DNA of 60,647 bases, the filler included. It is 4 parts of 4 records of this genome, joined end to end, with 100 filler letters (N's around TTAATTAATTAA, not from the genome) between each part and the next. Parts side by side here need not be neighbours in the genome. Positions count along the whole stretch, not along the records: positions 26,168 to 41,780 come from SRR22947725_4539; 3 more parts are not named here. One strand, written 5' to 3'. The notes beneath the pieces were generated by a model. The model did no database searches. It saw nothing but the letters and a program-made list of their open reading frames with translations, and was not told the origin of the DNA. The position numbers were made by a program, and so were the translations under genes. Below, piece after piece: positions 9,811-51,368 of this stretch (position 1 is the first letter of the stretch; each line of letters begins with the position of its first letter).

Positions 9811-9819
9811 CACAAGACT

Positions 9820-10197
9820 ATGGAACAGACAAATCGATATTCCGACGAAGCACTCCTAGAATTTAAGGAGCTTATTGAACAAAAAATCGCAAAAGCACAA
9901 AAAGATCTTGATCTTATACGCAGCGCTTATATGAATGATGGAAACAACGGTACTGATGATACAGCACCTACATTCAAAGCGTTTGAAGAAGGCTCAGAGA
10001 CGATGTCTAAAGAGGCCAATACACAGCTCGCTATTCGACAAGAAAAGTTTATTAGAGACTTAAAAAATGCCTTAATCCGTATTGAGAATAAAACCTACGG
10101 TGTATGCCGTGTTACAGGTAAACTAATCAACACGGAGCGCTTAAAGCTTGTACCACATGCAACGTTAAGCATCGAGGCTAAAAACATGCAGCGTTAA
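9820..10197 (+). CDS. TraR/DksA-family transcription factor
   Basis: Coiled coil followed by ALIRIENKTYGVCRVTGKLI...RL..VPHATLSIEAK; sits between ileS and lspA. Confidence 0.88.
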   Translation: MEQTNRYSDEALLEFKELIEQKIAKAQKDLDLIRSAYMNDGNNGTDDTAPTFKAFEEGSETMSKEANTQLAIRQEKFIRDLKNALIRIENKTYGVCRVTGKLINTERLKLVPHATLSIEAKNMQR

Positions 10198-10200
10198 TAC

Positions 10201-24920: not shown

Positions 24921-26067
24921 CTATTGATCTTCCATTTCAAAATCCTCCATAAACTTGGTCGTGTAATCACCAGCAACATAATCGGGATGATCCATTAATT
25001 GACGGTGGAACGGAATAGTAGTTTTGATTCCTTCAATTACAAATTCATCTAGTGCACGTTTCATTTTACTGATAGCCTCTTCACGAGTTTGTGCAGTTGT
25101 AATTAACTTGGCAATCATGGAATCGTAGTGCGGAGGAATCATATACCCGCTGTAAACATGCGTATCAAGACGAACACCATGTCCACCTGGAGTATGCAGT
25201 GTTTTTATCATGCCAGGCGATGGTCGAAAGTCATTGTAAGGATCTTCTGCATTTATTCTACATTCAATAGAATGCAATTCTGGAAAGTAGTTTTTTCCTT
25301 CTATTGGAAATCCTGCGGCTACTTTAATCTGCTCAGCAATCAAGTCAAAATTGATGACTTGTTCAGTAATAGGATGCTCTACTTGGATACGCGTATTCAT
25401 TTCCATAAAGTAGAAATTACGATGCTTATCAACTAGAAACTCTACGGTACCCGCTCCTTCATATTTGATATACTCGGCAGCTTTCACAGCAGCAGCACCC
25501 ATATCCTTACGAAGCTTATCAGTCATAAAGGGACTAGGCGTTTCTTCAGTCAGTTTTTGATGTCGTCGTTGGACAGAGCAATCGCGCTCAGACAGATGGC
25601 ATGCTTTGCCAAAGGAGTCTCCAACCACTTGTATTTCGATATGGCGAGGCTCTTCAATAAGCTTTTCCATATACATGTCGTCGTTTCCAAATGCAGCTTT
25701 AGACTCTTGTCGTGCGTCTTCCCAAGCTTTTTCTAGGTCTTCCTCACTCCAAACAGCACGCATTCCTTTTCCTCCACCTCCAGCAGTAGCCTTTAGCATA
25801 ACGGGATATCCTACTTCTTTAGCAAGTTTTATACAGTCTTTAAATGAAGCAATAATTCCTTCAGACCCTGGTATAGTGGGGACGCCAGCTTCCTTCATGG
25901 TCGCTTTGGCCGTAGCCTTATCACCCATTTGTTGGATCATTTGAGCAGAAGCTCCAATAAATTTGATTTTATGCTCTTCGCATATTTTCGAAAACTTAGC
26001 GTTTTCTGACAAAAAACCATAGCCGGGATGGATGGCATCTGCATTGGTGATTTCTGCAGCAGCAATA
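24921..26067 (-). CDS. accC: Acetyl-CoA carboxylase biotin carboxylase subunit, 5'-truncated at the contig end
   Basis: The frame continues to the linker ([22 protein letters not shown]); [49 protein letters not shown]. Confidence 0.96.
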
Positions 26068-26167
26068 NNNNNNNNNNNNNNNNNNNNNNNNNNNNNNNNN
26101 NNNNNNNNNNNTTAATTAATTAANNNNNNNNNNNNNNNNNNNNNNNNNNNNNNNNNNNNNNNNNNNN
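26068..26167. other. Artificial contig linker
   Basis: 44 N + TTAATTAATTAA (stops in all six frames) + 44 N. Confidence 0.98.
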
Positions 26168-26288: not shown

Positions 26289-27143
26289 TTATATTAGAAC
26301 TTTGCCCACTTCTATATGTCCCATTCGAAAACTGTTTGGTGACACGCCTGTTTTGGATTTGAAAAACCGGGTAAAATGTCCTTGCGCGGAAAAGCCAAGC
26401 AACTCAGAGATTTCTACGATCGGTAGCTCTGGATTGCTGAGCAGATTGGCTGCCCGCTCGCAGCATAATGTGTCAATGTATGTTCTTGGGCTAAGTCCAG
26501 TACACATTCGAAATCGATAATAGAATTGCGAGCGGGACAGTCCGACGTCTTTGGCAACCTTGTTAAGGTCTATTTCTTTTGTAGGCCCTTCTCGGAAGAA
26601 TCGTATTGCTTTGCGGACACGTGGATCGTTGGCGAACGTACGCTGTGAATTTACGTCTGAAATCGCATCTGTTTTCGAACACTGAAGAACTGAAAAGAAC
26701 AAATCGCGCAACAATGAGTCAAAGTGATCATCTTCTGTATGAAAATCGGCCATTTGACCCGCCAAATTTTGCGCCTGGTAATGAAGTTTGGAACTGACAG
26801 TGGCTGTTGCTTGATGAAAGGGCAACTTGTGAAAGCCCGTGAGTATATGATTGCCTTGTTCCCCAAACCACAGCATATCTATATAGAGCGCTAGCAAGAT
26901 TGTTGGCTCAATTCCAGTTCCAATTTCTCTTTCATTAGAGTGCACGACCCAGGGATTGACCACAATCATCTGAGAATCTGTCAGTTGATCGATTTTTCCA
27001 TCAACTCGAAAACTCAAATCAGGTCCGGATATTTTGATCAAGGCATGCACTTGAGAATGAGCATGTTCTAAAACTGGTTCAGTTGCTGACAAAAGAGCAA
27101 CACGCCCAAATGCACCTACAGCGATTCCTAATGCTTCAGCCAA
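26289..27143 (-). CDS. AraC/XylS-family transcriptional regulator
   Basis: C-terminal double HTH VAKDVGLSRSQFYYRF...IVEISELLGFSAQGHFTRFFKSKTGVSP; N-terminal cupin-like HAH. Likely start is TTG 27143, preceded by GGAGG. Divergent from gabD. Confidence 0.92.
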   Translation of the reverse strand: MAEALGIAVGAFGRVALLSATEPVLEHAHSQVHALIKISGPDLSFRVDGKIDQLTDSQMIVVNPWVVHSNEREIGTGIEPTILLALYIDMLWFGEQGNHILTGFHKLPFHQATATVSSKLHYQAQNLAGQMADFHTEDDHFDSLLRDLFFSVLQCSKTDAISDVNSQRTFANDPRVRKAIRFFREGPTKEIDLNKVAKDVGLSRSQFYYRFRMCTGLSPRTYIDTLCCERAANLLSNPELPIVEISELLGFSAQGHFTRFFKSKTGVSPNSFRMGHIEVGKVLI

Positions 27144-27287
27144 TTCGCCTCCAAAAGTTGCGACAAGAAATAATCGGACAAAAAGGTAAATAGCACTTGG
27201 GGAAGGCAAAGACAACCTCAAGCATAATAGTTAAAGTGAAGTTAACAAAAGCGTGATGCTGAACGAAAAAAGTTTAAGGAAATAATT

Positions 27288-28757
27288 GTGGTAAAATTGC
27301 CAAATTTTTTAAAAACAGACTGCTATATTGGAGGCAAATGGGTTGCTGCATCCTCAGGGAGGCGCATGGATGTGACTGATCCTGCCTCGGGTGCACTTTT
27401 GGCATCAGTTCCTCGAATGGGTGTGGCTGAAACCGATAATGCAATCGCCGCAGCGCAGATAGCGTTTCCCGAGTGGAGCCGCCGCACGGCTGCTGAGCGC
27501 GCGTTGGTTCTTCAGAAATGGGCAGTATTGATACGCTCGCACGCTGAAGATTTGGCCCAACTTATGACGCAAGAGCAGGGCAAGCCGTTTGCGGAGTCTC
27601 TTGGAGAAATTGAGTATGCCGCAAGCTTCTTGAGCTGGTTTGCTGAAGAAGGTCGTCGGCTATATGGTGATATTATCCCTGCTCACCGTAATGACGCTCG
27701 CATACTTGTTACCCGAAACCCGCTCGGTGTCGTTGGTGGAATTACCCCCTGGAATTTTCCTGTCGCTATGGTCACACGAAAAACAGCACCTGCCTTAGCC
27801 GCTGGTAATTGTATGGTTCTGAAACCAGCCGAAGCAACGCCGCTCTCTGCCCTTGCTGTTGCGGCATTGGGCGATATGGCGGGACTGCCTGCTGGTGTCT
27901 TTAATGTGGTTACCGGGGATCGCGAAGACGCTCCGGTAATTGGAAAGACATTAGTTGATAGCCCGTTGGTGCGCAAGATTGGGTTCACTGGTTCCACTGT
28001 TGTTGGCAAGCAACTCATGCGTGAGTGTGCCACCAATATGACAAAAATTAGTCTGGAGCTTGGCGGAAACGCTGCCTTTATAGTATTTGAAGATGCAGAT
28101 ATTGAAGCTGCACTAGACGGCATTCAAATCTGCAAATTTCGGAACTCGGGTCAAACCTGTATTGCTGCAAATCGTATTCTCGTGCAGGAAAGCATTCACG
28201 TCAAGTTTGTTGCTGCCCTAAGTGAGCGTGCCAATCAAATACAAGTCGGTCACGGGCTTGAGAAAGCAACAAATATGGGACCTTTGATTGATGACCGAGG
28301 CATAAAAAAAATTGAACGCCTTATCGCTGATGCAGTCAGTAAAGGGGCAAAAATTCATGTTGGTGGTAATCGACATAAAGCTGGTGGCACGTATTTCCAA
28401 CCCACCGTGATGACGAATGTTTCGACTAACATGGATCTTGCGCATGAGGAGTTGTTTGGCCCCGTCGCAGCGATTTCAACGTTCCGTGATGAAAATGATG
28501 CCATTTCGATGGCGAACGACACTCCCTATGGTCTCGCGGGTTATTTCTACAGTCGAGATGTAGGTCGGATATTTCGAGTTGCTGATGCGCTTGAGGTTGG
28601 CATCGTCGGCGTAAACACCGGTCTAATTTCAACCGAAGTCGCGCCTTTTGGTGGAGTCAAAGAATCTGGAATTGGCCGCGAGGGCTCAAAATACGGCATC
28701 GAAGACTGGACTGAACTCAAATACATCTGCCTAGCAGGACTGGAGACAACCGCATGA
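27288..28757 (+). CDS. gabD: NAD(P)-dependent succinate-semialdehyde dehydrogenase (GabD family)
   Basis: ITPWNFP, GFTGST, LELGGNA, KFRNSGQTC with the catalytic Cys, EELFGP, APFGGVKESGIGREGSKYG; RBS AAGGA before the GTG. Confidence 0.88.
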   Translation: MVKLPNFLKTDCYIGGKWVAASSGRRMDVTDPASGALLASVPRMGVAETDNAIAAAQIAFPEWSRRTAAERALVLQKWAVLIRSHAEDLAQLMTQEQGKPFAESLGEIEYAASFLSWFAEEGRRLYGDIIPAHRNDARILVTRNPLGVVGGITPWNFPVAMVTRKTAPALAAGNCMVLKPAEATPLSALAVAALGDMAGLPAGVFNVVTGDREDAPVIGKTLVDSPLVRKIGFTGSTVVGKQLMRECATNMTKISLELGGNAAFIVFEDADIEAALDGIQICKFRNSGQTCIAANRILVQESIHVKFVAALSERANQIQVGHGLEKATNMGPLIDDRGIKKIERLIADAVSKGAKIHVGGNRHKAGGTYFQPTVMTNVSTNMDLAHEELFGPVAAISTFRDENDAISMANDTPYGLAGYFYSRDVGRIFRVADALEVGIVGVNTGLISTEVAPFGGVKESGIGREGSKYGIEDWTELKYICLAGLETTA

Positions 28758-29071
28758 TTGTTGAAGAACGCATTTATACCCTGCAAATCGGCAAGGTACC
28801 TGAATATCTTAAGCTTTACGCAGCAGAGGGTTTTGCCGTGCAAACACGCATTTTGGGCAATCTTCTTGGGTATTATCAAGTTGAGTTTGGGCCACAGAAC
28901 CAGATTGTGCACCTTTGGTCCTATTCTGATCTTGTTGATCGTACGGTTCGACGCAAGGAGCTTATTGGTGATCCTGACTGGCAGGCATACGTTAAGAAAA
29001 TCCGCCCGCTTGTTCGATATCAGGAAAATAAATTGCTAATCCCTGCGCCGTTTATGCAGCCAAAATTATAG
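28754..29071 (+). CDS. NIPSNAP-family protein
   Basis: MIVEERIYTL..GK, HLWSY.DL.DR..RR..L..DPDW and L.PAPF patterns; ATGA overlap with gabD. Confidence 0.85.
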   Translation: MIVEERIYTLQIGKVPEYLKLYAAEGFAVQTRILGNLLGYYQVEFGPQNQIVHLWSYSDLVDRTVRRKELIGDPDWQAYVKKIRPLVRYQENKLLIPAPFMQPKL

Positions 29072-29091
29072 AGTTTGAAAGAGAGTTATTC

Positions 29092-29721
29092 ATGGAACTT
29101 CATTTATACGAAGACGTTATAGCAGCGGGACAACAGGTTGAGCTTTCAGATACCATTGCGCGCGCAATTTATGTGACTGCTGGAAAAATTTCTATCGATG
29201 GAGAGGGCATTGCATGCGACGGTGGGTTTGTTGCGGATGGGCCAGTTACGCTTCTTGCAGGGTCTGAGGGTGCATCACTGTGGCGTTGGGATTTGTCAAA
29301 TGCAGATGAACAGGCGTCCACACACAGGGTCTCCAAGAAATTGTCAGGGCCAGTAACCACAGCGATGGCGCATTCTGACAGCTTTCTTCGACTTGATAGT
29401 GTGGCGTTCCCGCCCGCAGGGACGGCGATGCTACATACGCATCAGGGCCCAGGCATTCGTTGTCTTCGTGAAGGATTGGTTCGGATTGATACAGAAGGTA
29501 CGTCAACCCCTTATGGCCCTGGTGGCTCGTGGTTTGAAAGTGGGCCTGAGCCGGTCTTCCTGCAAGCCGTGGAAGATATTCCAAGTCGTTTTATTCGTGC
29601 AATGGTCTTGCCAAAGGCACTATTAGGAAAATCATCCATTCACTATGTAAACGAGGAAGATCGTGGGAAACCCAAATCGCAATCCTATAGGAACTTTGGT
29701 GAGATTAGCTTGGCGTTATGA
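29092..29721 (+). CDS. Hypothetical protein with probable cupin fold
   Basis: D.V.FPP...LHTHQGPGIRC...G.SWFE pattern resembles a cupin metal site (HxH...E); translationally coupled to the next gene. Confidence 0.6.
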   Translation: MELHLYEDVIAAGQQVELSDTIARAIYVTAGKISIDGEGIACDGGFVADGPVTLLAGSEGASLWRWDLSNADEQASTHRVSKKLSGPVTTAMAHSDSFLRLDSVAFPPAGTAMLHTHQGPGIRCLREGLVRIDTEGTSTPYGPGGSWFESGPEPVFLQAVEDIPSRFIRAMVLPKALLGKSSIHYVNEEDRGKPKSQSYRNFGEISLAL

Positions 29722-31418
29722 ATATGTTATTTCAATCTAAATCTAAATCTCTAACGGGTGCAAAAATCTTGGTTGAATGCTTGCGTCAACAGGATGTGAA
29801 AAACACGTATCTTGTTCCAGGTGAAAGCTACTTGTCGGTCTTGGATGCCTTAACCGACGTTCCTGAGATCGAACTTACCGTTTGTCGACAGGAAGGTGGC
29901 GCGGCGATGATGGCAGCGGCACACGGCAAACTGACGGGTCGACCCGGGATATGCATGGTCACACGCGGGCCAGGAGCGACAAATGCGTCTGCTGGTTTAC
30001 ATATAGCGTGCCAAGATGCGATTCCGATGATCCTGTTTGTGGGTCAAGTTGCCCGTGAAATGCGCGAGCGCGAAGCGTTTCAGGAAATCGACTATCGCCG
30101 GATGTTTGGGCAAGTCGCCAAATGGGTGGCCGAAGTCGATAGCCCGGATCGTATGGCCGAAATTGTATCTCGCGCTTTTCATGTGGCTATGTCAGGCCGC
30201 CCCGGCCCTGTAGTGCTTGCAGTTCCCGAAGACATGTTGACGGAACACACGAAGGTAAACGTGCCGAACTTGGGGCTAGCCAAACCTGCACGCGCAACCA
30301 TTACGTCCCACGATGCTGATGAATTTTTGAACACGCTTCGTTCTGCTAAATCGCCTTTGATAATTGTCGGTGGCGGGGTCTGGTCGAACGATGCGCGCCG
30401 CGATTTGGAAGACTTTGCGACCAAGTGGGCGGTTCCTGTTGCCGCTTCATTCCGATGTCAGGACTATTTTAACAACGTCCATCCCTGCTATGCAGGGGAT
30501 TCTGGGATTGGGATTAATCCAATCTTGGCCGCACGGATCAGAAATGCCGACGTATTGATTTTGCTTGGCACACGGTTCAGCGAAATGGAATCAAGTGGAT
30601 ATTCGCTGGTGGGTATTCCGCAGGGCGATCAGCACATTATCCATGTGTACCCAGACCCTGAGGAGATTGGCCGTGTATATAAACCACAGCTTGGAGTTGC
30701 GGCGCCGCCGGATGAAGTGATTGCATCTTTGCTACATCGCGACATACCGGATTTCGACTTGACCGCACGCCGCGCGACAGTTGCGCAGTGCAACGCTGAA
30801 TATAATGCATGGTCGACATTACCTGAAGGTCGTGGTGATCTGGCTATGGCAGACGTGATGCGCCACATAGAGGGCGTTCTCACGGACGATGCAATCGTAA
30901 CAAACGGGGCAGGTAATTACACGGTTTGGATCCACAGGTTTCACAAACACCGCCAGTATCCGTCGCAGCTTGCGCCAATCTCAGGATCGATGGGATATGG
31001 TGTTCCCGCTGCTGTAGCGGCCGCGCGCGTTATGCCAGAACGTCAAATAGTCTGTTTTGCAGGAGATGGGTGTTTTTTGATGCATGGTCAAGAGCTTGCG
31101 ACTGCGGTTCAATATAAATCAAATCTTGTTATCATTGTAGTCAATAACGGGATGTACGGCACAATTCGTATGCATCAAGAGCGCAACTATCCCGGTCGGA
31201 TAAGTGGCACTGATTTGGTTAATCCAGATTTTGCAGCGCTCGCTAAATCCTATGGTTGTCACGGTGAAACCGTTACTAGAACAGATCAGTTTTCAGGAGC
31301 TTGGGAACGCGCCAACGTCCATGAGGGGCCAAGTTTGATTGAGCTTCAGGTTGATCCCAAACTGATCACACCTACACAAACAATAAACGACATCAGGAAA
31401 GCGTCGAAGACATCTTAG
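29718..31418 (+). CDS. Thiamine-diphosphate-dependent enzyme, acetolactate-synthase-like family (probably catabolic)
   Basis: VPGESYL.VLDAL, RQEGGA with the activating Glu, VTRGPGATN, AFQE, GSMGYG, ThDP motif GDG...NN. No small regulatory subunit is adjacent. Confidence 0.9.
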   Translation: MNMLFQSKSKSLTGAKILVECLRQQDVKNTYLVPGESYLSVLDALTDVPEIELTVCRQEGGAAMMAAAHGKLTGRPGICMVTRGPGATNASAGLHIACQDAIPMILFVGQVAREMREREAFQEIDYRRMFGQVAKWVAEVDSPDRMAEIVSRAFHVAMSGRPGPVVLAVPEDMLTEHTKVNVPNLGLAKPARATITSHDADEFLNTLRSAKSPLIIVGGGVWSNDARRDLEDFATKWAVPVAASFRCQDYFNNVHPCYAGDSGIGINPILAARIRNADVLILLGTRFSEMESSGYSLVGIPQGDQHIIHVYPDPEEIGRVYKPQLGVAAPPDEVIASLLHRDIPDFDLTARRATVAQCNAEYNAWSTLPEGRGDLAMADVMRHIEGVLTDDAIVTNGAGNYTVWIHRFHKHRQYPSQLAPISGSMGYGVPAAVAAARVMPERQIVCFAGDGCFLMHGQELATAVQYKSNLVIIVVNNGMYGTIRMHQERNYPGRISGTDLVNPDFAALAKSYGCHGETVTRTDQFSGAWERANVHEGPSLIELQVDPKLITPTQTINDIRKASKTS

Positions 31419-31450
31419 GCGACATCATAAGAAGAAAGGGAGTAAAGCTA

Positions 31451-32203
31451 ATGGATCAAAAAAAGGTTGTAATCGTGACGGGCGGATCAATGGGGATTGG
31501 CCGAGCCATTGCTGATCGATTTGCAAATGATGGGGCCGATGTTGTCATTGCTGACATAGCAGGTGCCGCTGAGGCAGCAAACGAAATGGTAGCAGCAGGC
31601 GCAAGTGCAATTGGCGTGACGTGTGATATCTCTGATCCTGTGTCGTGTGACGCGATGGTTTTGGCTGCGGTCAACGCCTTTGGTCGGATTGACACGCTGG
31701 TGAATAACGCAGGCCTGTATTCGACTCTAAAACTTACTGATTTTTCCAAAATTAAACCCGAAGATTGGCAGCGTGTTTTGAATGTTAATGTCATGGGGCA
31801 GGCCTTCGTGACTGCCGCTGTTCTACCAACAATGCAGACACAAAACAAAGGCGAGATTGTGAACATGTCTTCGGGAACACCGTTCAAAGGAGTTCCTTAT
31901 CTGCTGCACTACGTTGCAAGTAAAGGCGCAATCAATGCGATGACTAAAGCACTAGCAAAAGAACTGGGTGAATTTGGCATTCGGGTTAATGGTGTTGCGC
32001 CAGGCTTTACGTTGTCAGATGGGGTTAAAGCAAACCCGCATCAAATCGAAAAACTGCAAGAAATATCCGTCAAATCGCGTGTTATCGCCCGTGATCAACT
32101 GCCCGAAGACGTTGTTGGTGCGGTGGTATTCCTTGCTTCAGACGATGCTGCATTTATGACGGGCCAAACGCTTGTCGTCGATGGCGGCGCTTATTTTCAC
32201 TAA
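31451..32203 (+). CDS. Classical short-chain dehydrogenase/reductase (likely NAD-preferring)
   Basis: TGGSMGIG, acidic residue in IADI, NNAG, catalytic YVASK, TGQTLVVDGG. Confidence 0.93.
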   Translation: MDQKKVVIVTGGSMGIGRAIADRFANDGADVVIADIAGAAEAANEMVAAGASAIGVTCDISDPVSCDAMVLAAVNAFGRIDTLVNNAGLYSTLKLTDFSKIKPEDWQRVLNVNVMGQAFVTAAVLPTMQTQNKGEIVNMSSGTPFKGVPYLLHYVASKGAINAMTKALAKELGEFGIRVNGVAPGFTLSDGVKANPHQIEKLQEISVKSRVIARDQLPEDVVGAVVFLASDDAAFMTGQTLVVDGGAYFH

Positions 32204-32236
32204 CGCATACAATCAAACAAAAAAGGAGAAGACAAA

Positions 32237-33223
32237 ATGAAACGACGTACATTTATAAAGGCAACAACATTGACAGCTGCAGCTTTGGCAACACCAGGGC
32301 TGGTGCGTGCTGCAACCGCGAAAAAACTTCGTGTTGGAACTATCACACCGGGTAGTCATTATTGGACACAGACAATGGATCGTGTTGGTGTCTCACTGGC
32401 TGAAAAAAGTGGTGGGATGTTTGAAACTCAAGTGTTTCCGTCAGGTCAGCTTGGCAACGAAGCAACAATGATCCAGCAAATTCAGGCTGGTGGCCTTGAA
32501 ATGGGTTTTTTGACAGTTGCTGAGTTTTCAAACCGGATTGAAGACATGGCAGCGTTGTTCGCGCCCTACCTTGTGCCAGACGTGGCTCATGCATCAAAAC
32601 TTTTGACTGGTGAGACCGCAACTGGAATGCTTGATCAGTTCTCAACATTGGGAATGAAAGGCCTTGGTTTTGGTCTGGGTGGTATGAGACATCTCATATC
32701 ACGCAATCCAGTGTTGACATCAGCAGACCTTGCAGGGCGCAAGTATCGGATCACGCCCTTTGCAGCGTTGCGTGATTTTTACGAATTAATGGATGTTGCG
32801 CCAACCCCGGTTCCCTTACCTGGATTGTTTGATGCATTAGCGAACGGTCAGGTTGACGGCGCGGACATTGATCTTGAACTGGCATGGAAATTGAAATTGT
32901 TTGATCAGGCACCTAACCTGACAGCCACTAGCCAGATGATGTTCCCAGTTGTTGCAGTGGTTTCTGGCAAGTATTGGGCCGCTCTTGATAATGCTGAAAA
33001 GAAAATGTTGTCGGAAACGGTGTCAGAACAAATTGATTGGCTTTTTGCGCAGTATATAGAGTCTGATCCCAAATGGTTGGATGATCTGAAAGGGACCGGA
33101 ATGAACGTTACAACAGCAGAGCCTGGATTTTTTGGAGATACTTTGGCAGAATGGTCGAATATTTGGGAGCCCAAAGCACCATCCATCATCAGTCTACGCA
33201 AAGAAGCCGCATTGTTGATGTAA
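32237..33223 (+). CDS. dctP: TRAP transporter substrate-binding protein with twin-arginine signal
   Basis: MKRRTFIK Tat signal, VFPSGQLGNE, conserved Arg in KYRIT, FDALANGQVDG; RBS AAGGAG. Confidence 0.9.
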   Translation: MKRRTFIKATTLTAAALATPGLVRAATAKKLRVGTITPGSHYWTQTMDRVGVSLAEKSGGMFETQVFPSGQLGNEATMIQQIQAGGLEMGFLTVAEFSNRIEDMAALFAPYLVPDVAHASKLLTGETATGMLDQFSTLGMKGLGFGLGGMRHLISRNPVLTSADLAGRKYRITPFAALRDFYELMDVAPTPVPLPGLFDALANGQVDGADIDLELAWKLKLFDQAPNLTATSQMMFPVVAVVSGKYWAALDNAEKKMLSETVSEQIDWLFAQYIESDPKWLDDLKGTGMNVTTAEPGFFGDTLAEWSNIWEPKAPSIISLRKEAALLM

Positions 33224-33231
33224 GTCAATTT

Positions 33232-33259
33232 GACCGCCTGTTTTCAATAACAGGCGGTC
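33232..33259 (+). terminator. Stem-loop after dctP (mRNA stabiliser or partial terminator)
   Basis: GACCGCCTGTT-TTCAAT-AACAGGCGGTC, a perfect 11-bp stem; no clear U-tract. Confidence 0.7.
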
Positions 33260-33285
33260 TTACCCTTTCATAAAAGGCCAATACC

Positions 33286-33837
33286 ATGAATTTTGTCGTC
33301 AAATTATCGGCTTGGATCGCTAAATTAGAAGCACTTATATTAAAAGTGCTCGTAGCATTTGTATTGTTGTTGATGGTTGTCAATGTCGTCAGTCGGGCTT
33401 TAAATTCATCTTTGTATTGGGCTGATGAACTCGCAATTAATGTAATGGTGATATTCGCTTTCGTAGGATCCAGCCTGATGTTTGCACAAAGGCGAAATTT
33501 TGCCGTCACACTCGTATCAGACGTTGTTTCAAATAAGAACTGTCGACGAATGGCGATTTTTGTCCAATGTGTGAATGTGCTATTTGCACTTTTTCTGGCT
33601 TATGCAACCTGGCTTTGGTTTGACCCATTAACCTTGGTAAGAAATGGCTTTCAATTGCAAGGGTTTTTTGAAGAGACCTACAACAGCGTCTATCAGGAAG
33701 TAACAAATACCATCGGTGTTCGCAGGGTATGGTTCTTTCTTGTGATGCCAATGTTCGCATTCACCTTATTCGTTCACAGTTGCGCCTGTCTCGTCCAAGA
33801 CTTGCAAAACCAAAACACATTGGACACGTCGAAATGA
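33286..33837 (+). CDS. dctQ: TRAP transporter small permease
   Basis: NVVSR...LYWADELA motif and four hydrophobic segments; lies between dctP and dctM. Confidence 0.88.
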   Translation: MNFVVKLSAWIAKLEALILKVLVAFVLLLMVVNVVSRALNSSLYWADELAINVMVIFAFVGSSLMFAQRRNFAVTLVSDVVSNKNCRRMAIFVQCVNVLFALFLAYATWLWFDPLTLVRNGFQLQGFFEETYNSVYQEVTNTIGVRRVWFFLVMPMFAFTLFVHSCACLVQDLQNQNTLDTSK

Positions 33838-35090
33838 TAACCGTCATTGTCTTTGTTGTATTGCTTTTTGTTGGAGCACCTATTGGAATTGTTCTAGCCG
33901 TTTCGGCAGCTGTCTACTTAATTGACGCGGGTAATTCCGCTTTGATTGGATCTTACGCACTGCAACTGATGTCAGGTATTGGTAAATATGGTTTGCTGGC
34001 AATCCCTCTGTTTATGCTCGTGGGTGAAATGATGAACGGGGGTGGTATCACCACCAGGCTGGTCGGGATGGCGCGTGCGATTGTTGGCACTATGAAAGGT
34101 GGCCTTGTTTATGTGAATATTCTTGCAAATATGATGATGGCTTCGATCCTTGGCTCAGCTACAGCACAAATTGCGATCATGTCAAAAGTTATGGTTCCCG
34201 AAATGGAACGGGAAGGATACTCAAAGACTTTCGCCGTGGCCACAACAACTGCAGCTGGGCTTTTGTCACCCGTTATTCCGCCATCAATGATGTTTGTTGT
34301 ATATGGTGTTCTTGCACAAATTTCGATTGGTGATCTCTTCATTGCTGGCATCGTACCAGGATTGATGATGGCTGGGGGATTTATGATTGTGATTTTCATC
34401 ATGGGATTGGTGAGTCCATTTCCTGAAGCTCCCAAACTATCGAAGCCGGAACGCGTCGCATTGTTTCGTGATGGATTAATAACACTGACCATTCCAGCTT
34501 CAATTATTGGCTGTATTACTTTGGGGCTTGCAACACCGACAGAATCTGCTGCCATCGCCGCAGTAATGGCATACCTGATCGGTAAGTTCGCAACCAAAGA
34601 GCTGGTTGAACGCGACATACCACAAATGTTGCTAACAGCAGGGTCCAACGCGGCACTTGTTCTATTCATGGTGGCTACAGCAAATGTTTTTAGCTGGATA
34701 TTGATTTATGGCCAGATCCCCCAAAGCTTGGCGGCATGGATCGTAATTTTTGCTGAGAACCCCATTTTGTTCTTGCTGCTTCTAAACCTCATAATGCTTT
34801 TAGTAGGAATGGTGATCGACGGAATACCAGCGCTGATTATGGTAGTTCCAATTGTCCTGCCCGTGGCGACGGCTGTCTACGGGATTGATCCCTATCATCT
34901 CGGGATTGTCTTATGCCTGAATCTGACTTTGGGGCTTGTGACCCCACCCGTTGGTGTTGCGCTGTACGTAGCTGCAACAGTGTCAAATGTTAAGGCTGGG
35001 GCTATTTTCAAAACGGCATTACCCTTTGTTGTGGTCGCAGCATTGGTCGTGGTTTTAATTAGTGTTTTACCCGCTTTGATAATCCGATGA
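33834..35090 (+). CDS. dctM: TRAP transporter large permease
   Basis: LLAIPLFML.GEMM..GG, VIPPS, TPTESA, TPPVG. Start at ATG 33834, overlapping the dctQ stop. Confidence 0.93.
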   Translation: MITVIVFVVLLFVGAPIGIVLAVSAAVYLIDAGNSALIGSYALQLMSGIGKYGLLAIPLFMLVGEMMNGGGITTRLVGMARAIVGTMKGGLVYVNILANMMMASILGSATAQIAIMSKVMVPEMEREGYSKTFAVATTTAAGLLSPVIPPSMMFVVYGVLAQISIGDLFIAGIVPGLMMAGGFMIVIFIMGLVSPFPEAPKLSKPERVALFRDGLITLTIPASIIGCITLGLATPTESAAIAAVMAYLIGKFATKELVERDIPQMLLTAGSNAALVLFMVATANVFSWILIYGQIPQSLAAWIVIFAENPILFLLLLNLIMLLVGMVIDGIPALIMVVPIVLPVATAVYGIDPYHLGIVLCLNLTLGLVTPPVGVALYVAATVSNVKAGAIFKTALPFVVVAALVVVLISVLPALIIR

Positions 35091-35160
35091 CTGGACAAAG
35101 AAAATTAAAAACCCATACCAGCATCGACACTAAGATGAATTTTTCATTCAGTTATAATAA

Positions 35161-35206
35161 CTGCATATCTGGGTCATCCCTGCAATTTTTTATCTTTACC
35201 TGCAAT
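35161..35206 (+). repeat. Phased short direct repeats (CTGCA cores at 35161, 35180 and 35200)
   Basis: CCTGCAAT occurs exactly at 35179-35186 and 35199-35206, with a partial copy about 19 nt upstream, in the intergenic region before the aldehyde dehydrogenase. Confidence 0.5.
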
Positions 35207-35232
35207 ATGGTTACTAATTGGGACATAAAAAT

Positions 35233-36747
35233 ATGATATTTACTCCACACGGCAAACATTTCATCGCGAGCAATTTGGTTGGGAGCGATACCAAATTCAG
35301 CTCAAAACCAGCCCATGGGCCTGCTCATAATTTCTCAGTTGGTTCGCCGCCACATATTGATGCAGCCGTCAATGCTGCCGAAAATGCTTTTTGGTCTTTT
35401 GGCTATTCCAGTCGCAAAGAACGCGCAGAATTTTTGAATGTTATTGCGGATGAGATTGATCTGCATGGTGACGCAATCACCGAAATTGGTACGCAAGAAA
35501 CTGGGTTGCCAGAGGCACGTCTGCAAGGCGAACGTGGCCGCACGACTGGTCAACTGCGATTGTTCGCAAACCATATTTTGGTTGGAGATTATCTAGATTT
35601 TCGTCATGATGAGGCCTTGCCAGGGCGTTCTCCGTTGCCGCGTTCAGATTTGAAAATGATACAGCGACCCATTGGCCCTGTTGCGGTGTTTGGTGCGTCC
35701 AACTTTCCGCTTGCGTTTTCAACGGCAGGTGGCGATACCGCTGCCGCTTTGGCTGCGGGCTGTCCTGTTGTGGTTAAAGGTCACACCGCCCATCCTGGCA
35801 CAGGTGAGATTGTCGCAGAGGCCGTGCAAGTGGCAATCCACAAATGTGATATGCATCCTGGCGTTTTCTCTTTGGTGCAGGGTGGCAATCTTGAGGTTGG
35901 ACAAGCTTTGGTGCAGCATCCACTGATCAAAGCAGTTGGCTTTACGGGATCACTGTCTGGTGGTCGTGCCTTATTTGATCTCTGCGCCCGCCGCCCAGAA
36001 CCTATTCCTTTTTTTGGTGAACTTGGTTCAATCAACCCGATGTTCATTCTGCCGGATGCTGCGAAAATACGAGGGGCTGAAATCGGAGCAGGATGGGCGG
36101 TTTCTTTGACGATGGGGGCTGGTCAATTTTGTACAAATCCTGGAGTCGCTGTGATCCTGAAAGATCACGCTGAAGCTTTTACCGCTGCCACAGCCAAGGC
36201 GTTAGGGGAGGTTGGTCCGCAAATTATGCTGACGGATGAGATCGCAACGGCATTTAGGAACGGCCAGTCGCGAATTGCGAGCAGAGAGGGGGTTCAAGGC
36301 GTTCTGACATCGATATGTGATCAACGCAGTGCCACGCCCTATCTCTATCAAACTACAGCGGCACAATGGTTGGCCAATGAGGAGTTGGGCGAAGAGATTT
36401 TTGGCCCAATTGGCCTGATCGTTTTAGCTGACGGTTTGGAGCAAATGCACAGCGTGGCTCATGCTTTGAAAGGCCAGCTGACATGCACATTGCATATGAA
36501 TGCTTCTGATGGAGAAGCTGCTAAATTACTGATGCCAATTTTGGAACGCAAGGCTGGGCGCATATTGGCTAATGGTTTCCCTACGGGCGTCGAGGTTAGT
36601 GAGGCGATGGTTCATTGTGGACCTTATCCAGCGTCAACTAACTTCGGGGCCACGTCTGTTGGCACAATGTCAATCAGGCGTTTCACTAGACCGGTTTGCT
36701 ACCAAGATATTTCCTTGGATCATTTGCCAGAATGTTTTGTAACTTAG
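35233..36747 (+). CDS. Alpha-ketoglutaric semialdehyde (2,5-dioxovalerate) dehydrogenase-like aldehyde dehydrogenase
   Basis: ETGLPEARLQGERGRT.GQL, VFGASNFPLAFSTAGGD, ELGSINP, GQFCTNPG, NGFPTGVEV, signatures of the KGSADH subfamily. Confidence 0.88.
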   Translation: MIFTPHGKHFIASNLVGSDTKFSSKPAHGPAHNFSVGSPPHIDAAVNAAENAFWSFGYSSRKERAEFLNVIADEIDLHGDAITEIGTQETGLPEARLQGERGRTTGQLRLFANHILVGDYLDFRHDEALPGRSPLPRSDLKMIQRPIGPVAVFGASNFPLAFSTAGGDTAAALAAGCPVVVKGHTAHPGTGEIVAEAVQVAIHKCDMHPGVFSLVQGGNLEVGQALVQHPLIKAVGFTGSLSGGRALFDLCARRPEPIPFFGELGSINPMFILPDAAKIRGAEIGAGWAVSLTMGAGQFCTNPGVAVILKDHAEAFTAATAKALGEVGPQIMLTDEIATAFRNGQSRIASREGVQGVLTSICDQRSATPYLYQTTAAQWLANEELGEEIFGPIGLIVLADGLEQMHSVAHALKGQLTCTLHMNASDGEAAKLLMPILERKAGRILANGFPTGVEVSEAMVHCGPYPASTNFGATSVGTMSIRRFTRPVCYQDISLDHLPECFVT

Positions 36748-36914
36748 TTGGAAAATTTTTTGTAATCTGGGCATTGTCAAAAAAACTTGATGTTCCACTG
36801 ATTGGCTCTTAATTTTATCGCTAGCTCATTTGCAAAATTTGATGCTTGATCTACTTTGTCTGACGACACCCCGTCTAGACCAATCGTCTGGGCCATTCCC
36901 GCATTTGATAGAAT

Positions 36915-37604
36915 CTAATCTAAAAAATAGTCAATGTGATATGCGCGAGCTTTAGTGATTGTTTCATTCAAACGTTCCAAATGAAACCGCATTAATTTGA
37001 TGGCATCTGCACTCTCCTTAGAATTAAGAGCGTTAAATATCTGAATATGATCCTTGTAAATTTCTTCCATCCCGGCGATGTCCGCCAGGGCCAACGTGCA
37101 CAATCGATCAACATGTGATTTGGTTTCTAATATCATTTTAAAAGCGGCTCCAACACCTGCAGCTATGCACAGCAGTTCATGGAATTCATAATCCAGTTCT
37201 TGAAACTGGTCAAAGGTGCCATGTTCTATGACATGTTTTTGACGATCTAGATTTAATTGAATGGGTTCTAGGTCTTCGGTCGTAGCTGTTTCGCAAATTC
37301 TACGACAAACTTCTACCTCTACTGCAGTGCGTAAGAAACGAATGTTTAGAATCTCTTGGATTGAAATCTTACAAACTCGTGTGGCCATTTGTGGTCTGAT
37401 TTGTAGCATATTCATTTCGCCAAGGCGTAAAAATGCCTCACGGACAGGTTGACGGGACACTTGAAATTTTTTAGCAACTTCAACCTCAGACAATTTGGTG
37501 TTGGGTATCAAACGCAAGGCGATTATATCCGCACGCAAATATTGAAAGATGTCTTCGGCGACGGTTTGTCGCTTAGGGTTCTTAATTGTCGCGTTCAAAT
37601 TCAT
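36915..37604 (-). CDS. GntR-family (FadR/FCD) transcriptional regulator
   Basis: wHTH LSEVEVAKKFQVSRQPVREAF; FCD His motifs D.EFH, DH..I and M..HL. Start ATG 37604 with RBS AAGGA. Divergent from the second TRAP operon. Confidence 0.93.
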   Translation of the reverse strand: MNLNATIKNPKRQTVAEDIFQYLRADIIALRLIPNTKLSEVEVAKKFQVSRQPVREAFLRLGEMNMLQIRPQMATRVCKISIQEILNIRFLRTAVEVEVCRRICETATTEDLEPIQLNLDRQKHVIEHGTFDQFQELDYEFHELLCIAAGVGAAFKMILETKSHVDRLCTLALADIAGMEEIYKDHIQIFNALNSKESADAIKLMRFHLERLNETITKARAYHIDYFLD

Positions 37605-37741
37605 TTCGGTCCTTTTTGTTGGTCTGCACTTGATGTTAGATTTCGCAGAATGCACCTTACAAATGCATTGCACTAAATTATCACCACAATCTAATATGTA
37701 AATATACTCTTCTGCCTTAAGACTCAACTTTTTGCATATAA

Positions 37742-37821
37742 TTCATATTTATATGAAGTAAATTATAATTACCATACTAGTCAACATTTTACTTGACGCA
37801 AGAGAATTCTCGACCTACGAA
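37742..37821 (+). promoter_or_regulatory. Candidate operator and sigma70 promoter for the second TRAP operon
   Basis: Perfect inverted repeat TTCATAT-TT-ATATGAA (37742-37757), palindromes AATTATAATT and ACTAGT, then TTGACG (37793-37798), a 17-nt spacer and TACGAA (37816-37821). Confidence 0.45.
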
Positions 37822-37893
37822 TTAGGCGTTCCAACGATTCCACCATCCATTACTAAACGGATTGTGGAGACTTAACATCTGGGAGGATGAATT

Positions 37894-38898
37894 ATGACAT
37901 TAGTGAACACTGTTAAGAAATTAACTAAAACTGTGGTGCTTGCGTCTGGTTTGGTTGCCGTAAGTGCGTCAGCCAGCTTTGCACAGGACATAACACTTCG
38001 CGGCGCTAGCCAGTTTGATGAGAACCACGCATTTACCAAAACTATGGTTAAATTCGAGGAATTAATTGCCGCAAAATATGATGGTGAAATAAAATTTGAT
38101 ATGCGCTTGAACGGCGAATTAGGTGTTGAAAAAGATTACGTATCATTCCTACAACAAGGTGTTGCGATTGATTATGCAATTATGGCTCCGTCCAACATGG
38201 CCAAATTTTCACCATCAATTCCTTTGATGGATATGCCATTCTTGTTCCGCGACTTGGCGCATTGGAATGCGGCATTGTCTAGCGATGTTATGGCTCCACT
38301 TGAAATAGAACTTTTGGAAAAAGCAGACATCAAAATCATTGGCTACACTGGTGGTGGTACACGTAACTTGTTGTCTAAGAACCCAATTGGGAATTTGGAC
38401 GAGCTTAAGGGTCACAAAATGCGCGTTATGGGTGCCCCAATCCAAGCACAAATCTTTGCTGCTTTGACGGCTGCTCCATCTGCGATTGCGTATAATGAAG
38501 TATACAACGCGATCCAAACAGGTGTTATTGCTGGTTTTGAAAACGAAGCTGCAAGTATCCAAAACTTGAAGTTTTACGAAGTTGCTCCGCACCTGACGTT
38601 GACCAAACATACAATCACTGTGCGTCCTATCGTAATGAGCGGCAAAACATTCCGTAAATTACCTGAGGCATTGCAAACAGCCGTTCTCGCAGCAGGTAAA
38701 GAAGCAGGCGCTTTTGGTCGTGAGCTGGAATCAAGCGAAGATGCAGTGAAACTACAAGAAATGGTAGACGCTGGTCAGTTGACTGTTCAAGAATTTGCAA
38801 ACCGCGAAAAATTGCTTGAAATGGTTATCCCTGTTCAAAACGATTATGCTTCTACTATAGAAGCCACTGATTTGTTGGCTGCAATCCGGGTCAAGTAA
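37894..38898 (+). CDS. dctP: TRAP transporter substrate-binding protein
   Basis: Sec signal ending ASFA, NGELGVE, PFLFRD, conserved Arg in KMRVM, EVYNAIQTGVI.GFEN, FYEV; RBS GGAGG. Confidence 0.92.
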   Translation: MTLVNTVKKLTKTVVLASGLVAVSASASFAQDITLRGASQFDENHAFTKTMVKFEELIAAKYDGEIKFDMRLNGELGVEKDYVSFLQQGVAIDYAIMAPSNMAKFSPSIPLMDMPFLFRDLAHWNAALSSDVMAPLEIELLEKADIKIIGYTGGGTRNLLSKNPIGNLDELKGHKMRVMGAPIQAQIFAALTAAPSAIAYNEVYNAIQTGVIAGFENEAASIQNLKFYEVAPHLTLTKHTITVRPIVMSGKTFRKLPEALQTAVLAAGKEAGAFGRELESSEDAVKLQEMVDAGQLTVQEFANREKLLEMVIPVQNDYASTIEATDLLAAIRVK

Positions 38899-38910
38899 TC
38901 ATTATAAATC

Positions 38911-38943
38911 AAACCATCAGCAGTTCCGGCTGCTGATGGTTTT
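38911..38943 (+). terminator. Stem-loop / intrinsic terminator after the second dctP
   Basis: AAACCATCAGCAG-TTCCGG-CTGCTGATGGTTT, a 13-bp stem ending in a T run. Confidence 0.75.
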
Positions 38944-38978
38944 GTGTATTCTGTATATAATTAACTGTGGGAGCAATT

Positions 38979-39473
38979 ATGATTGGACGTTGGCTTGAAA
39001 CCTTTTGCCAAGGGCTAAGATATTTGATGGGTTTTCTGGTTGGAATCCTGGCCATTCCCGTCGGTATGCAGGTAATTGCACGTTATACAGGGATCATTCC
39101 TGTATATTTGTGGACAGAGGAACTCTCAACTTTTATTTTTGTTTGGGTTGTAATGATTGGCTCAATGGTCGCAGTCTGGGAAGGGACCCATTTTGATGTG
39201 CGTGTCATTCCCGATGCCAACCAACCATTTATGATTTTTTTACAAAAAGCAGTGGTCTTGATTTTGATCGGCGTCTTCGCTGTACTGTTTGCATGGTACG
39301 GCATTGAGTATGCTAAATTTGGTTATCTTCAAAACTCGGTTATGATGCGGGCCAATTTGGCAATAACATTTGTATCAGTGCCAATTGCGGGTGCTATCTG
39401 GACGGCCTTCACAACCTATCGTTTATACGAGGCATTTGAACAATACCGCGCAACAAATGAGGTTTCGCAATGA
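38979..39473 (+). CDS. dctQ: TRAP transporter small permease
   Basis: QVIARY...WTEELS, HFDV; four hydrophobic segments. Confidence 0.9.
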   Translation: MIGRWLETFCQGLRYLMGFLVGILAIPVGMQVIARYTGIIPVYLWTEELSTFIFVWVVMIGSMVAVWEGTHFDVRVIPDANQPFMIFLQKAVVLILIGVFAVLFAWYGIEYAKFGYLQNSVMMRANLAITFVSVPIAGAIWTAFTTYRLYEAFEQYRATNEVSQ

Positions 39474-40780: not shown

Positions 40781-40788
40781 ATAATAAG

Positions 40789-41780: not shown

Positions 41781-41880
41781 NNNNNNNNNNNNNNNNNNNN
41801 NNNNNNNNNNNNNNNNNNNNNNNNTTAATTAATTAANNNNNNNNNNNNNNNNNNNNNNNNNNNNNNNNNNNNNNNNNNNN
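41781..41880. other. Artificial contig linker
   Basis: 44 N + TTAATTAATTAA + 44 N. Confidence 0.98.
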
Positions 41881-51268: not shown

Positions 51269-51368
51269 NNNNNNNNNNNNNNNNNNNNNNNNNNNNNNNN
51301 NNNNNNNNNNNNTTAATTAATTAANNNNNNNNNNNNNNNNNNNNNNNNNNNNNNNNNNNNNNNNNNNN
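51269..51368. other. Artificial contig linker
   Basis: 44 N + TTAATTAATTAA + 44 N. Confidence 0.98.

Follow-up and report, generated by a model that had tools for sequence, protein, structure and literature searches.

The window analysed here (a stretch of 60,647 nucleotides of DNA, in which four contigs are strung together) contains, between positions 26289 and 36747, a cluster in which the gene of an AraC-family regulator diverges from the genes of two aldehyde dehydrogenases (the first ALDH and ALDH2), a NIPSNAP protein, a 209-residue bicupin, a thiamine diphosphate (ThDP)-dependent enzyme, a short-chain dehydrogenase/reductase (SDR) and a tripartite ATP-independent periplasmic (TRAP) transporter (see Table 1). 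Judged by its recurring gene order, this cluster is a genuine, widespread and conserved operon, predicted to combine uptake with catabolism; literature searches found no description of it, and the remark of the initial annotation that the gene set is not recognised as a described pathway still holds. In our estimate there is about an even chance that the cluster is a substrate-inducible operon by which a carboxylate is imported, made into a 2-oxo acid and decarboxylated by the ThDP enzyme, the resulting aldehyde being then oxidised; the thiamine-dependent step would probably shorten the imported acid to a succinate-like product. The class of the substrate, the single reactions and the order of the steps are what we infer from gene families, fold, conserved residues and genomic context, and they are discussed below together with the other readings of the same genes.

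The finding is carried by the conservation of the gene order. Relatives of the bicupin were collected from 259 species genomes, and the best 80 loci were kept and classified by tblastn with the window proteins; the gene order of the operon recurs in 21 of the 80, in different families and in two classes, so that the expectation, expressed in the initial annotation, of finding these genes together in other genomes is borne out. Seventeen loci carry the ALDH, NIPSNAP, bicupin, ThDP and SDR genes together with DctPQM, two possess the enzyme core without a full TRAP match (L042, and L055 from Njordibacter) and two are partial (L001, which is cut by a contig end, and L017, which gives no ALDH match); elsewhere the bicupin gene is followed by the SDR gene only (30 loci) or stands without other operon genes (29 loci). 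The operon loci are distributed among Rhodobacteraceae/Paracoccaceae, Stappiaceae (Roseibium/Labrenzia), Pelagibius, Hoeflea, unclassified Alphaproteobacteria, a metagenome-assembled genome (MAG) of Granulosicoccus and Njordibacter, two of the 21 being gammaproteobacterial and the rest belonging to several alphaproteobacterial families; the cultured carriers are Planktotalea frisia SH6-1, Pelagimonas varians DSM 23678, Roseibium album CECT 5095 and Ruegeria meonggei CECT 8411. An unsupervised clustering of the neighbouring open reading frames (ORFs) returned the same partners and no others, namely AraC (23 loci), NIPSNAP and ALDH (20 each), ThDP, DctP and DctQ (19 each) and DctM (18); in the operon genomes the ThDP enzymes are 63-83% and the NIPSNAP proteins 70-91% identical to those of the window.

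While the enzymes are constant, the transporters are exchanged. In Njordibacter, tctCBA lies beside the AraC gene in place of the TRAP genes and a major facilitator superfamily (MFS) gene follows ALDH2; moreover, an AraC homologue is encoded within 8 kb of the bicupin gene in 23 of the 80 loci, including three loci of the bicupin-only class (L066, L072 and L073) where it is divergent or adjacent, two of them encoding in addition an MFS transporter (L072) or a TctC binding protein (L073). Since TRAP, tripartite tricarboxylate (TTT/TctCBA) and MFS transporters thus replace one another around the same enzymes, the substrate is taken to be an imported carboxylate.

In the window itself, the ORF list returns the eight plus-strand genes divergent from the AraC gene at the positions originally assigned to them, and their coupling by stop/start overlaps is real, with 4 nt shared by the first ALDH and NIPSNAP genes, 4 nt shared by the bicupin and ThDP genes, and an ATGA joining dctQ to dctM. 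The longest ORF for dctM starts at 33729, and the PF06808 match begins only at residue 39 of this long ORF; the likely start is an ATG at 33834 that overlaps the stop of dctQ. Pfam and NCBIfam agree with the families proposed for all the products with the exception of the 209-residue protein, for whose designation as a cupin no match is obtained at default thresholds (see below). Similarly, the description of the cluster as a self-contained unit of uptake and degradation stands as regards its co-conservation in 21 loci, and needs amending in that a ninth co-oriented gene, ALDH2, belongs to it too. This gene is found in 6 of the 21 operon loci; its position after dctM is kept in the closest relatives (L002-L006), it lies directly after the SDR gene in L055, and a terminator scan of the gap between dctM and ALDH2 gave no strong terminator-like site. 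The collinearity of the DNA with L002 stops at about position 36751 and the metagenome contigs of three runs have loose ends at 36830-36860; because ALDH2 is kept, the collinearity ends there and the metagenome contigs break at about 36830-36870, the conserved unit is considered to span 26289-36747. Taken over the whole scan, predicted promoters and terminators were no more frequent than in shuffled sequence: promoter-like sites numbered 24 (24.9 expected) and terminator-like sites 19 (17.7 expected).

As far as uptake is concerned, Pfam identifies a complete TRAP set (PF03480, PF04290 and PF06808), and both DctP (161.8 bits to NF037995, cut-off 50) and DctM (357.5 bits to TIGR00786, cut-off 268) pass the thresholds of the respective NCBIfam models. 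The twin-arginine (Tat) start attributed to DctP is present in the translation as MKRRTFIK, and the arginine of the KYRIT stretch, to which the binding of carboxylates had been ascribed, is R171, which all 12 aligned orthologues share. According to the proposed mechanism, the Tat-exported DctP would bind the carboxylate via Arg171 and DctQM would import it, while AraC would turn the operon on in response to the imported compound or to an early product. The closest solved relative of DctP is SPO1773 from R. pomeroyi (4paf/4pai/4pbh; E 6.3e-91 over residues 14-326), which has reportedly been crystallised with hydroxybenzoates or benzoate. The structure model of DctP itself was poor (predicted local distance difference test score, pLDDT, 49) and served only to retrieve entry titles; in the preprint 10.1101/2021.12.03.471092, SPO1773 figures only as one aligned sequence. 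A 44%-identical paralogue of the operon DctP is encoded in Roseibium album (L087, G003:C4:623500-643400, at about 5837-11054), where its gene is flanked by those of a 3-hydroxyanthranilate dioxygenase and of a fused DctQM and where ALDH and LysR genes complete the cluster, an arrangement that suggests TRAP uptake of 3-hydroxyanthranilate or of a similar aminohydroxybenzoate by that locus.

The 209-residue protein may be regarded as the signature enzyme of the cluster and, on the basis of its structure model, as a small bicupin whose fold is nearest to those of BacB and AerE. No Pfam or NCBIfam match was obtained for it at default thresholds; indeed, Cupin_2 gives 11.8 bits with the window protein, below the gathering score of 27.2, and of the 16 family members compared, 14 match Cupin_2 weakly (best E 6e-4). 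Its homologues amount to 2307 in a collection of 5.8 billion proteins, none of them with a recorded Pfam domain, and a profile search of 1.84 billion representatives returned 748 clusters (50% identity) at E <= 1e-3, mostly made of proteins of 200-230 residues or of fragments; the protein atlas offered only 'cupin' or 'hypothetical' clusters, the plasmid collection gave no match, and a sequence search of the PDB yielded only a weak match to Dke1 (E 0.19). The AlphaFold2 model (pLDDT 86.4) is nearly all beta and consists of two small barrels of the double-stranded beta-helix type, and with Foldseek and exhaustive structural alignment the top 50 structures are nearly all cupins or bicupins (Z up to 12.9). 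Among enzymes of its size the highest scores, by a narrow margin, belong to BacB 3h7j (Z 12.9, root mean square deviation 2.7 over 158 residues) and to AerE 5zbf (Z 12.4, root mean square deviation 2.5 over 152). In an alignment of 37 members, down to 28% identity, G31, H115, G121, R123, G128, W147, E149, F167, R169 and P174 are invariant and H117, R100 and D102 nearly so, and the N-terminal barrel is without any conserved histidine. H115, H117 and E149 make a candidate 2-His-1-Glu metal site, and Arg100, Arg123 and Arg169 appear to be placed for carboxylate groups; the bicupin would accordingly be a metal enzyme in which these arginines hold the acid group or groups of the substrate.

The SDR partners the bicupin in 51 of the 80 loci, being 63-88% identical to the window protein in operon loci and 64-69% in the loci where only the pair is found; its best solved relatives are 8cxa and, next, the (S)-1-phenylethanol dehydrogenase 2ew8 (E 1.3e-50). 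In five genomes with the pair only, the protein most similar to the ThDP enzyme is 39% (four genomes) or 51% (one genome) identical and that most similar to the NIPSNAP protein at most 44%, neither of the two having an orthologue there. Because the pair stands alone elsewhere, the operon may be resolved into two modules, bicupin with SDR and ThDP enzyme with ALDH (and NIPSNAP), to which a transporter and a regulator are added. The first module would convert the imported acid to the correct 2-oxo acid by a dehydrogenation combined with an isomerisation, a tautomerisation or an oxygenation. The pair-only loci (L019-L049 and others) come in many cases from uncultured alphaproteobacterial MAGs, and regulator and transporter are absent from them.

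The same pair could also be read in terms of sugar acids, the bicupin and the SDR acting as do KduI and KduD in the isomerisation and reduction of a keto-deoxy-uronate, with the ThDP enzyme and ALDH on an oxidative side branch. KduI 9kcz (Z 9.9) and the IolB-like isomerase 2qjv (Z 11.4) are indeed among the structural neighbours of the bicupin, KduD is among the NCBIfam matches of the SDR (162.7 bits, with a cut-off of 369), a stand-alone enzyme pair would suit entry into the metabolism of 2-keto-3-deoxygluconate (KDG), and the next module on the contig comprises a GntR regulator, a TRAP system with a solute-binding protein (DctP2) resembling Sulfitobacter 4nx1/4ovp and a PfkB kinase. This module, however, is not kept beside the operon elsewhere, and it lies beyond both the end of the collinearity with L002 and the breaks of the metagenome contigs; the operon DctP is nearer to SPO1773 than to uronate binders, and the unit possesses neither kinase nor aldolase, all of which makes a sugar-acid or uronate route quite improbable.

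The ThDP-dependent enzyme belongs to the PRK08199 subfamily (NF006052, 'thiamine pyrophosphate protein'; 829.9 bits, the cut-off being 539; residues 7-564 cover profile positions 3-556 of 559), and every other named model, including all those for acetolactate synthases, remains below its cut-off. All three TPP_enzyme domains are present, and the translation shows the stretches 'AGDGCF...VVNNGMYG', which we take to be the GDG...NN motif for ThDP and Mg, and 'CRQEGGAAMMA', presumably carrying the catalytic Glu of the N-domain. Its best solved relatives stop at 238 bits; the lyases among them (benzaldehyde lyase, 2-hydroxyacyl-CoA lyases) score about 130-152 bits, and benzoylformate decarboxylase chains about 131-141. 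In wider members of the family the genomic context varies (beside a CaiB-type CoA-transferase in R. leguminosarum, as a ThDP-ALDH pair with a divergent LysR gene in Azospirillum, with MFS genes elsewhere) and yields no single function. The enzyme is probably a 2-oxo-acid decarboxylase or a C-C lyase, and in the proposed route it would remove C1 as CO2, leaving an aldehyde with the remaining acidic group.

The eventuality, raised in the initial annotation, that this protein is an ordinary acetolactate synthase of branched-chain amino-acid biosynthesis, like the idea that the genes are adjacent by accident and make no pathway at all, is hardly credible. Automatic annotation at JGI does label the homologues 'acetolactate synthase large subunit'; yet the model for that subunit, TIGR00118, gives 338.2 bits against a cut-off of 538.35, the genes adjacent to that of the ThDP enzyme are those of the bicupin and the SDR and not that of a small subunit, the overlaps couple the genes to one another, and their order is shared by 21 loci in two classes. 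The TIGR00118 score and the conserved loci refute both ideas.

A different use of the same enzyme has to be weighed, in which it would serve as a lyase or hydrolase of C-C bonds, cleaving an acyloin or a 1,2-diketone as benzaldehyde lyase or cyclohexane-1,2-dione hydrolase do; the SDR would make the keto group, succinic semialdehyde would pass to the GabD-like dehydrogenase and the second aldehyde to ALDH2. Such a scheme would explain why two different ALDHs are found inside the unit and why a succinate-semialdehyde dehydrogenase is needed without 2-oxoglutarate as an intermediate; it is in keeping with the resemblance of the SDR to the benzylic alcohol dehydrogenase 2ew8 and with the presence of lyases among the solved relatives of the ThDP enzyme. 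We nevertheless consider it unlikely: ALDH2 is absent from 15 of the 21 operon loci, no sequence feature examined separates lyases from decarboxylases, and no candidate natural substrate is at hand.

Turning to the aldehyde step, the description of the first dehydrogenase as GabD-like is sound, E. coli GabD (3jz4) being its best solved relative with 613.7 bits over residues 6-482, even if the score falls 7.6 bits short of TIGR01780 (638.8 against a cut-off of 646.35) and remains below the cut-off of 828 of the GabD model NF008415 (659.8). Its stretches VTRK, KFRN and REGSKYG align with E. coli GabD and may correspond to the Arg/Arg/Ser set that, judging from the human enzyme, binds the distal carboxylate in succinate-semialdehyde dehydrogenases. 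Given the overall resemblance to these dehydrogenases, the aldehyde is likely to bear a carboxylate at three or four atoms from the carbonyl, and the enzyme would oxidise it to succinate, glutarate or another dicarboxylate. ALDH2, whose best solved relatives are the NADP+-dependent ALDH 3v4c from S. meliloti (753 bits) and, next, ALDH 1eyy from Vibrio harveyi, would oxidise a second or alternative aldehyde.

These assignments also lend themselves to a C5 route ending in a 2-oxoglutarate shunt: bicupin and SDR would make a C5 keto-aldehyde, ALDH2 would oxidise 2,5-dioxopentanoate to 2-oxoglutarate, the ThDP enzyme would decarboxylate the latter to succinic semialdehyde and the GabD-like enzyme would produce succinate. 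The three enzymes would then form a tidy chain of known reactions, in line with the GabD score just given and with the position of ALDH2 in the 3v4c/1eyy branch, which includes ketoglutarate-semialdehyde dehydrogenases; a precedent exists in cyanobacteria, S. elongatus among them, where the shunt of the tricarboxylic acid (TCA) cycle has a ThDP decarboxylase gene beside that of a succinate-semialdehyde dehydrogenase. On the other hand, 2-oxoglutarate is already a central metabolite, the decarboxylation of which brings a substrate-specific operon no gain, ALDH2 occurs in just 6 of the 21 operon loci, and no above-cut-off member of NF006052 was found in 14 control genomes including that of Synechococcus elongatus, so that the ThDP enzyme lies outside the family of the ThDP enzymes of that genome; the shunt is therefore held to be improbable.

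The NIPSNAP protein (residues 3-101 matching positions 1-101 of 102 of PF07978, with a gathering score of 22.3) has as solved relatives only the uncharacterised Agrobacterium proteins 1vqy and 2ap6. In all five plasmid clusters examined that encode a NIPSNAP homologue an ALDH-family gene is present, directly upstream in two of them; three of these clusters are sulfonate-like and two contain a monooxygenase. The protein is probably accessory to the aldehyde step, where it would act as a helper. In the three sulfonate-like cases (L088, L089 and L090, on plasmids of Paracoccus, Pseudorhizobium and Pseudomonas), NIPSNAP and ALDH accompany a four-subunit oxidoreductase resembling succinate dehydrogenase and a two-subunit fumarase-like hydratase, with a YeiH-type exporter in all, a TauE-type exporter in two of the three and a sulfite oxidase near one; this combination suggests a hitherto undescribed route for a sulfonated analogue of succinate.

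By extension, the operon itself might degrade an organosulfonate, the GabD-like enzyme oxidising a sulfo-aldehyde (as sulfolactaldehyde and 3-sulfopropanal dehydrogenases do) and the ThDP enzyme decarboxylating or desulfonating a sulfo-2-oxo acid (as do sulfopyruvate decarboxylase and Xsc). Roseobacters are prominent degraders of sulfonates and TRAP systems carry such compounds; in three of the five plasmid contexts the clusters of the nearest NIPSNAP homologues (53-57% identical) contain sulfite oxidase or exporters of the TauE/SafE or YeiH type, besides the dehydrogenase-like, fumarase-like and ALDH genes, and the ThDP enzyme gives 236.1 bits with the Xsc-type model NF005713. That score, however, is far under the cut-off of 620, the link through NIPSNAP passes via these 53-57% homologues only, and the neighbour-ORF clustering found no sulfite exporter, sulfite dehydrogenase or phosphotransacetylase kept with the operon; an organosulfonate substrate is thus very unlikely.

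Returning to the import and decarboxylation of a carboxylate, the substrate that we favour is an aromatic or hydroaromatic acid, to which we nonetheless assign somewhat less than an even chance. The hints in this direction are indirect: the relationship of DctP to SPO1773 with its reported (hydroxy)benzoate ligands, the dioxygenase cluster of L087, the relationship of the SDR to 2ew8, the ligand of AerE, whose structure 5zbf holds, according to its entry title, the aryl 2-oxo acid 4-hydroxyphenylpyruvate, and the neighbours of the bicupin where it occurs without the other operon genes. In 20 of the 29 loci of the latter kind the neighbours were examined, and they include UbiD (three loci), a UbiX-like flavoprotein, an FMN-dependent alpha-hydroxy-acid dehydrogenase, a protein of the mandelate-racemase/MLE family and an intradiol dioxygenase (one locus each), glutathione S-transferases (four), DSBA-like proteins (two) and molybdenum hydroxylases (two). 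A more far-reaching proposal, which we advance only tentatively, is that the operon stands for an expressed catabolic pathway, spread across the ocean and so far undescribed, for an aromatic or hydroaromatic acid derived from algae or plants, with the committed step entrusted to a new group of small 2-His-1-Glu bicupins, a new clade of ThDP enzymes releasing an aldehyde of the succinic-semialdehyde type, and the bare pair of bicupin and SDR, common in uncultured marine alphaproteobacterial MAGs, as the minimal form of this chemistry.

Several observations weigh against the main interpretation. Apart from the indirect character of the aromatic hints, the identity of the operon DctP to SPO1773 and to the Roseibium paralogue is just about 44-55%; the scores of BacB and AerE (Z 12.9 and 12.4) are barely above those of other bicupins (12.7-11.2), and housekeeping genes are the only neighbours in four of the 20 bicupin-only loci covered, as they are in the three pair-only loci that were inspected. 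The first ALDH is far nearer to true succinate-semialdehyde dehydrogenases (660 bits with NF008415) than to aryl-aldehyde dehydrogenases (395 bits with the StyD model), and a C4/C5 semialdehyde of aliphatic type would suit it more than a simple aromatic aldehyde. Since bicupin and SDR stand alone in 30 of the 80 loci, the ThDP and ALDH steps are not needed for their function, and the reverse order of the steps is possible; were the 2-oxo acid 2-oxoglutarate, moreover, its decarboxylation would be pointless given a full TCA cycle. Finally, the RNA-library contigs that bridge the genes (see below) are consistent with co-transcription and are proof neither of transcription nor of a single transcript.

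The operon is present in marine sequence data. Its part from 27288 to 36747 (9.5 kb) recurs almost verbatim in 13 DNA runs (share of sampled words 0.93-0.99), five of which are flagged as possible sources of the window DNA, and partly in six RNA runs (share 0.36-0.73), these 19 rows coming from 12 studies. Four runs, two of them metatranscriptome libraries, were compared contig by contig with the operon contig, and metatranscriptome contigs were found that bridge the genes, one of 5,009 nt from the ThDP gene to dctM (30060-35068) and one of 3,394 nt from the SDR gene to dctM (31398-34791); apparently, the cluster is expressed. Given that near-identical copies occur in marine and seawater metagenomes of several studies and in metatranscriptomes, the compound degraded is probably available in the sea with some regularity. 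Bacteria of the roseobacter type process much of the dissolved organic carbon of algae, and three protein groups to which no reaction has been assigned (the bicupin family, the PRK08199 clade of ThDP enzymes and the bacterial NIPSNAP proteins) meet in this operon; as cultured strains carry it, the question can be addressed directly.

The operon most likely derives from a marine alphaproteobacterium of the roseobacter type: the proteins of its contig share 82-92% identity with their counterparts in genomes and MAGs of Rhodobacteraceae and in one MAG labelled Granulosicoccus (L001-L006), and across 8.8 kb its DNA agrees at 82% with that of a Rhodobacteraceae MAG. The other contigs of the window are joined to it by three artificial spacers of 100 nt, recognised by reading the sequence and by script, each made of 44 N, TTAATTAATTAA and 44 N, and for this reason they are not the genomic context of the operon; in this record, gene neighbourhoods that cross N/TTAATTAATTAA spacers carry no meaning. 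The flanking contigs resemble Bacteroidota DNA; the first has genes of that type (PorZ, type IX secretion system sorting domains, a TonB receptor and DUF3108), and its asd and accC products are only about 50% identical to the counterparts in three alphaproteobacterial genomes; the operon contig may have been binned together with a Bacteroidota genome. A transfer of the operon into such a genome had come to mind, in view of its guanine-plus-cytosine (GC) content, higher than that of the flanks, and of a truncated accC, and was rejected in view of the artificial spacers. The accC ORF (biotin carboxylase, 24921-26012, minus strand) misses the first ~85 positions of the profile because the contig stops at 26067, and it represents neither an insertion nor a pseudogene. 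The third contig encodes two tandem glycosidases of family GH3, a protein with a Peptidase_S74 domain and an M3 peptidase; its GC content, compared with the 40% of other contigs of the same record, suggests a mixed bin.

Downstream of the operon, on the same contig, a separate module (36915-41748) consists of the GntR/FCD regulator (minus strand), the second TRAP system and the PfkB kinase already mentioned; its DctP2 matches Sulfitobacter 4nx1/4ovp with E 5e-160, a perfect 14-bp hairpin (38911-38942) lies between dctP2 and dctQ2, and the module is probably an uptake locus for a sugar acid or a uronate. At about 36830-36870 the contigs of runs X6, X10 and X14 differ in sequence upstream of that point, and in run X10 the depth changes from about 13 to 47; because of this divergence and of the jump in depth, the join between operon and module is considered either strain-variable or an assembly branch, and the linkage of the two is uncertain.

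Table 1. Coordinates of the operon genes, contig segments and artificial spacers in the window.
Feature	Position	Strand	Remarks
AraC-family regulator	26289..27221	-	PF12833 (72.1 bits), PF00165; 66-nt gap to ALDH start
GabD-like NAD(P)-dependent aldehyde dehydrogenase (first ALDH)	27288..28757	+	PF00171, 567 bits
NIPSNAP-family small protein	28754..29071	+	PF07978, 94.5 bits
209-residue bicupin	29092..29721	+	fold model; no family match
ThDP-dependent enzyme, PRK08199 subfamily	29718..31418	+	PF02776, PF00205, PF02775 (three TPP_enzyme domains)
Classical short-chain dehydrogenase/reductase (SDR)	31451..32203	+	PF13561, PF00106
DctP, TRAP solute-binding protein	32237..33223	+	PF03480, 156 bits
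DctQ, TRAP small membrane subunit	33286..33837	+	PF04290, 55.6 bits
DctM, TRAP large membrane subunit	33834..35090	+	PF06808, 329 bits; likely start
Second, divergent aldehyde dehydrogenase (ALDH2)	35218..36747	+	PF00171, 146 bits
Contig segment	1-26067		GC 40.4%
Artificial spacer	26068..26167		left end of operon contig
Contig segment	26168-41780		GC 46.0%; 15.6 kb, holds operon
Artificial spacer	41781..41880		right border of operon contig
Contig segment	41881-51268		GC 32.6%; 9.4 kb
Artificial spacer	51269..51368		separates third and fourth contigs
Contig segment	51369-60647		GC 40.7%

Among the systems already described, the transporter component finds its nearest counterpart in SPO1773, which shares with the operon DctP the arginine motif K-x-R-I-T-P and is nevertheless a paralogue, the identity to 4paf being 43% (Foldseek) compared with 69-91% for true orthologues. 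The BacB and AerE proteins, which act on an aryl or dihydroaryl 2-oxo acid and are followed by the SDRs BacG and AerF, respectively, have the size of the 209-residue bicupin (AerE 210 residues, BacB chain 224 residues) and are its best fold matches; they belong, however, to the biosynthesis of bacilysin and aeruginosin, whereas the context of the operon is catabolic and without a prephenate decarboxylase, and the bicupin differs from them in sequence (13% identity) and in having the conserved H115, H117 and E149 in the C-terminal barrel only. KduI and KduD offer the example of a self-sufficient two-gene module of a bicupin beside an SDR, from which the operon departs in the weaker structural match (Z 9.9) and in the absence of KDG kinase and aldolase.

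As for the overall design, the closest parallel is the mandelate pathway of Pseudomonas putida, carried out by MdlB, then by the benzoylformate decarboxylase MdlC and then by the benzaldehyde dehydrogenase MdlD. As in the proposed route, a hydroxy acid is made into a 2-oxo acid, a ThDP decarboxylase releases an aldehyde and an NAD(P)-dependent aldehyde dehydrogenase oxidises the latter to an acid one carbon shorter, all by the products of genes that are clustered and inducible; in the operon, by contrast, an SDR is found instead of an FMN dehydrogenase, there is no enolase-type racemase, the ALDH is GabD-like, the ThDP enzyme is of the PRK08199 clade, and bicupin, NIPSNAP protein and TRAP transporter come in addition. 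The cyanobacterial 2-oxoglutarate shunt resembles the operon in that the gene of an acetolactate-synthase-like ThDP enzyme adjoins that of a succinate-semialdehyde dehydrogenase, and differs from it in that the operon is linked to a transporter, is controlled by AraC and has three further enzymes, its NF006052 family having no above-cut-off representative in Synechococcus elongatus. The logic of the operon would thus be that of mandelate and arylpyruvate degradation or of the cyanobacterial shunt, with enzymes that, by their family assignments, fall outside those of either system; the cluster is an uncharacterised variant of a familiar catabolic design.

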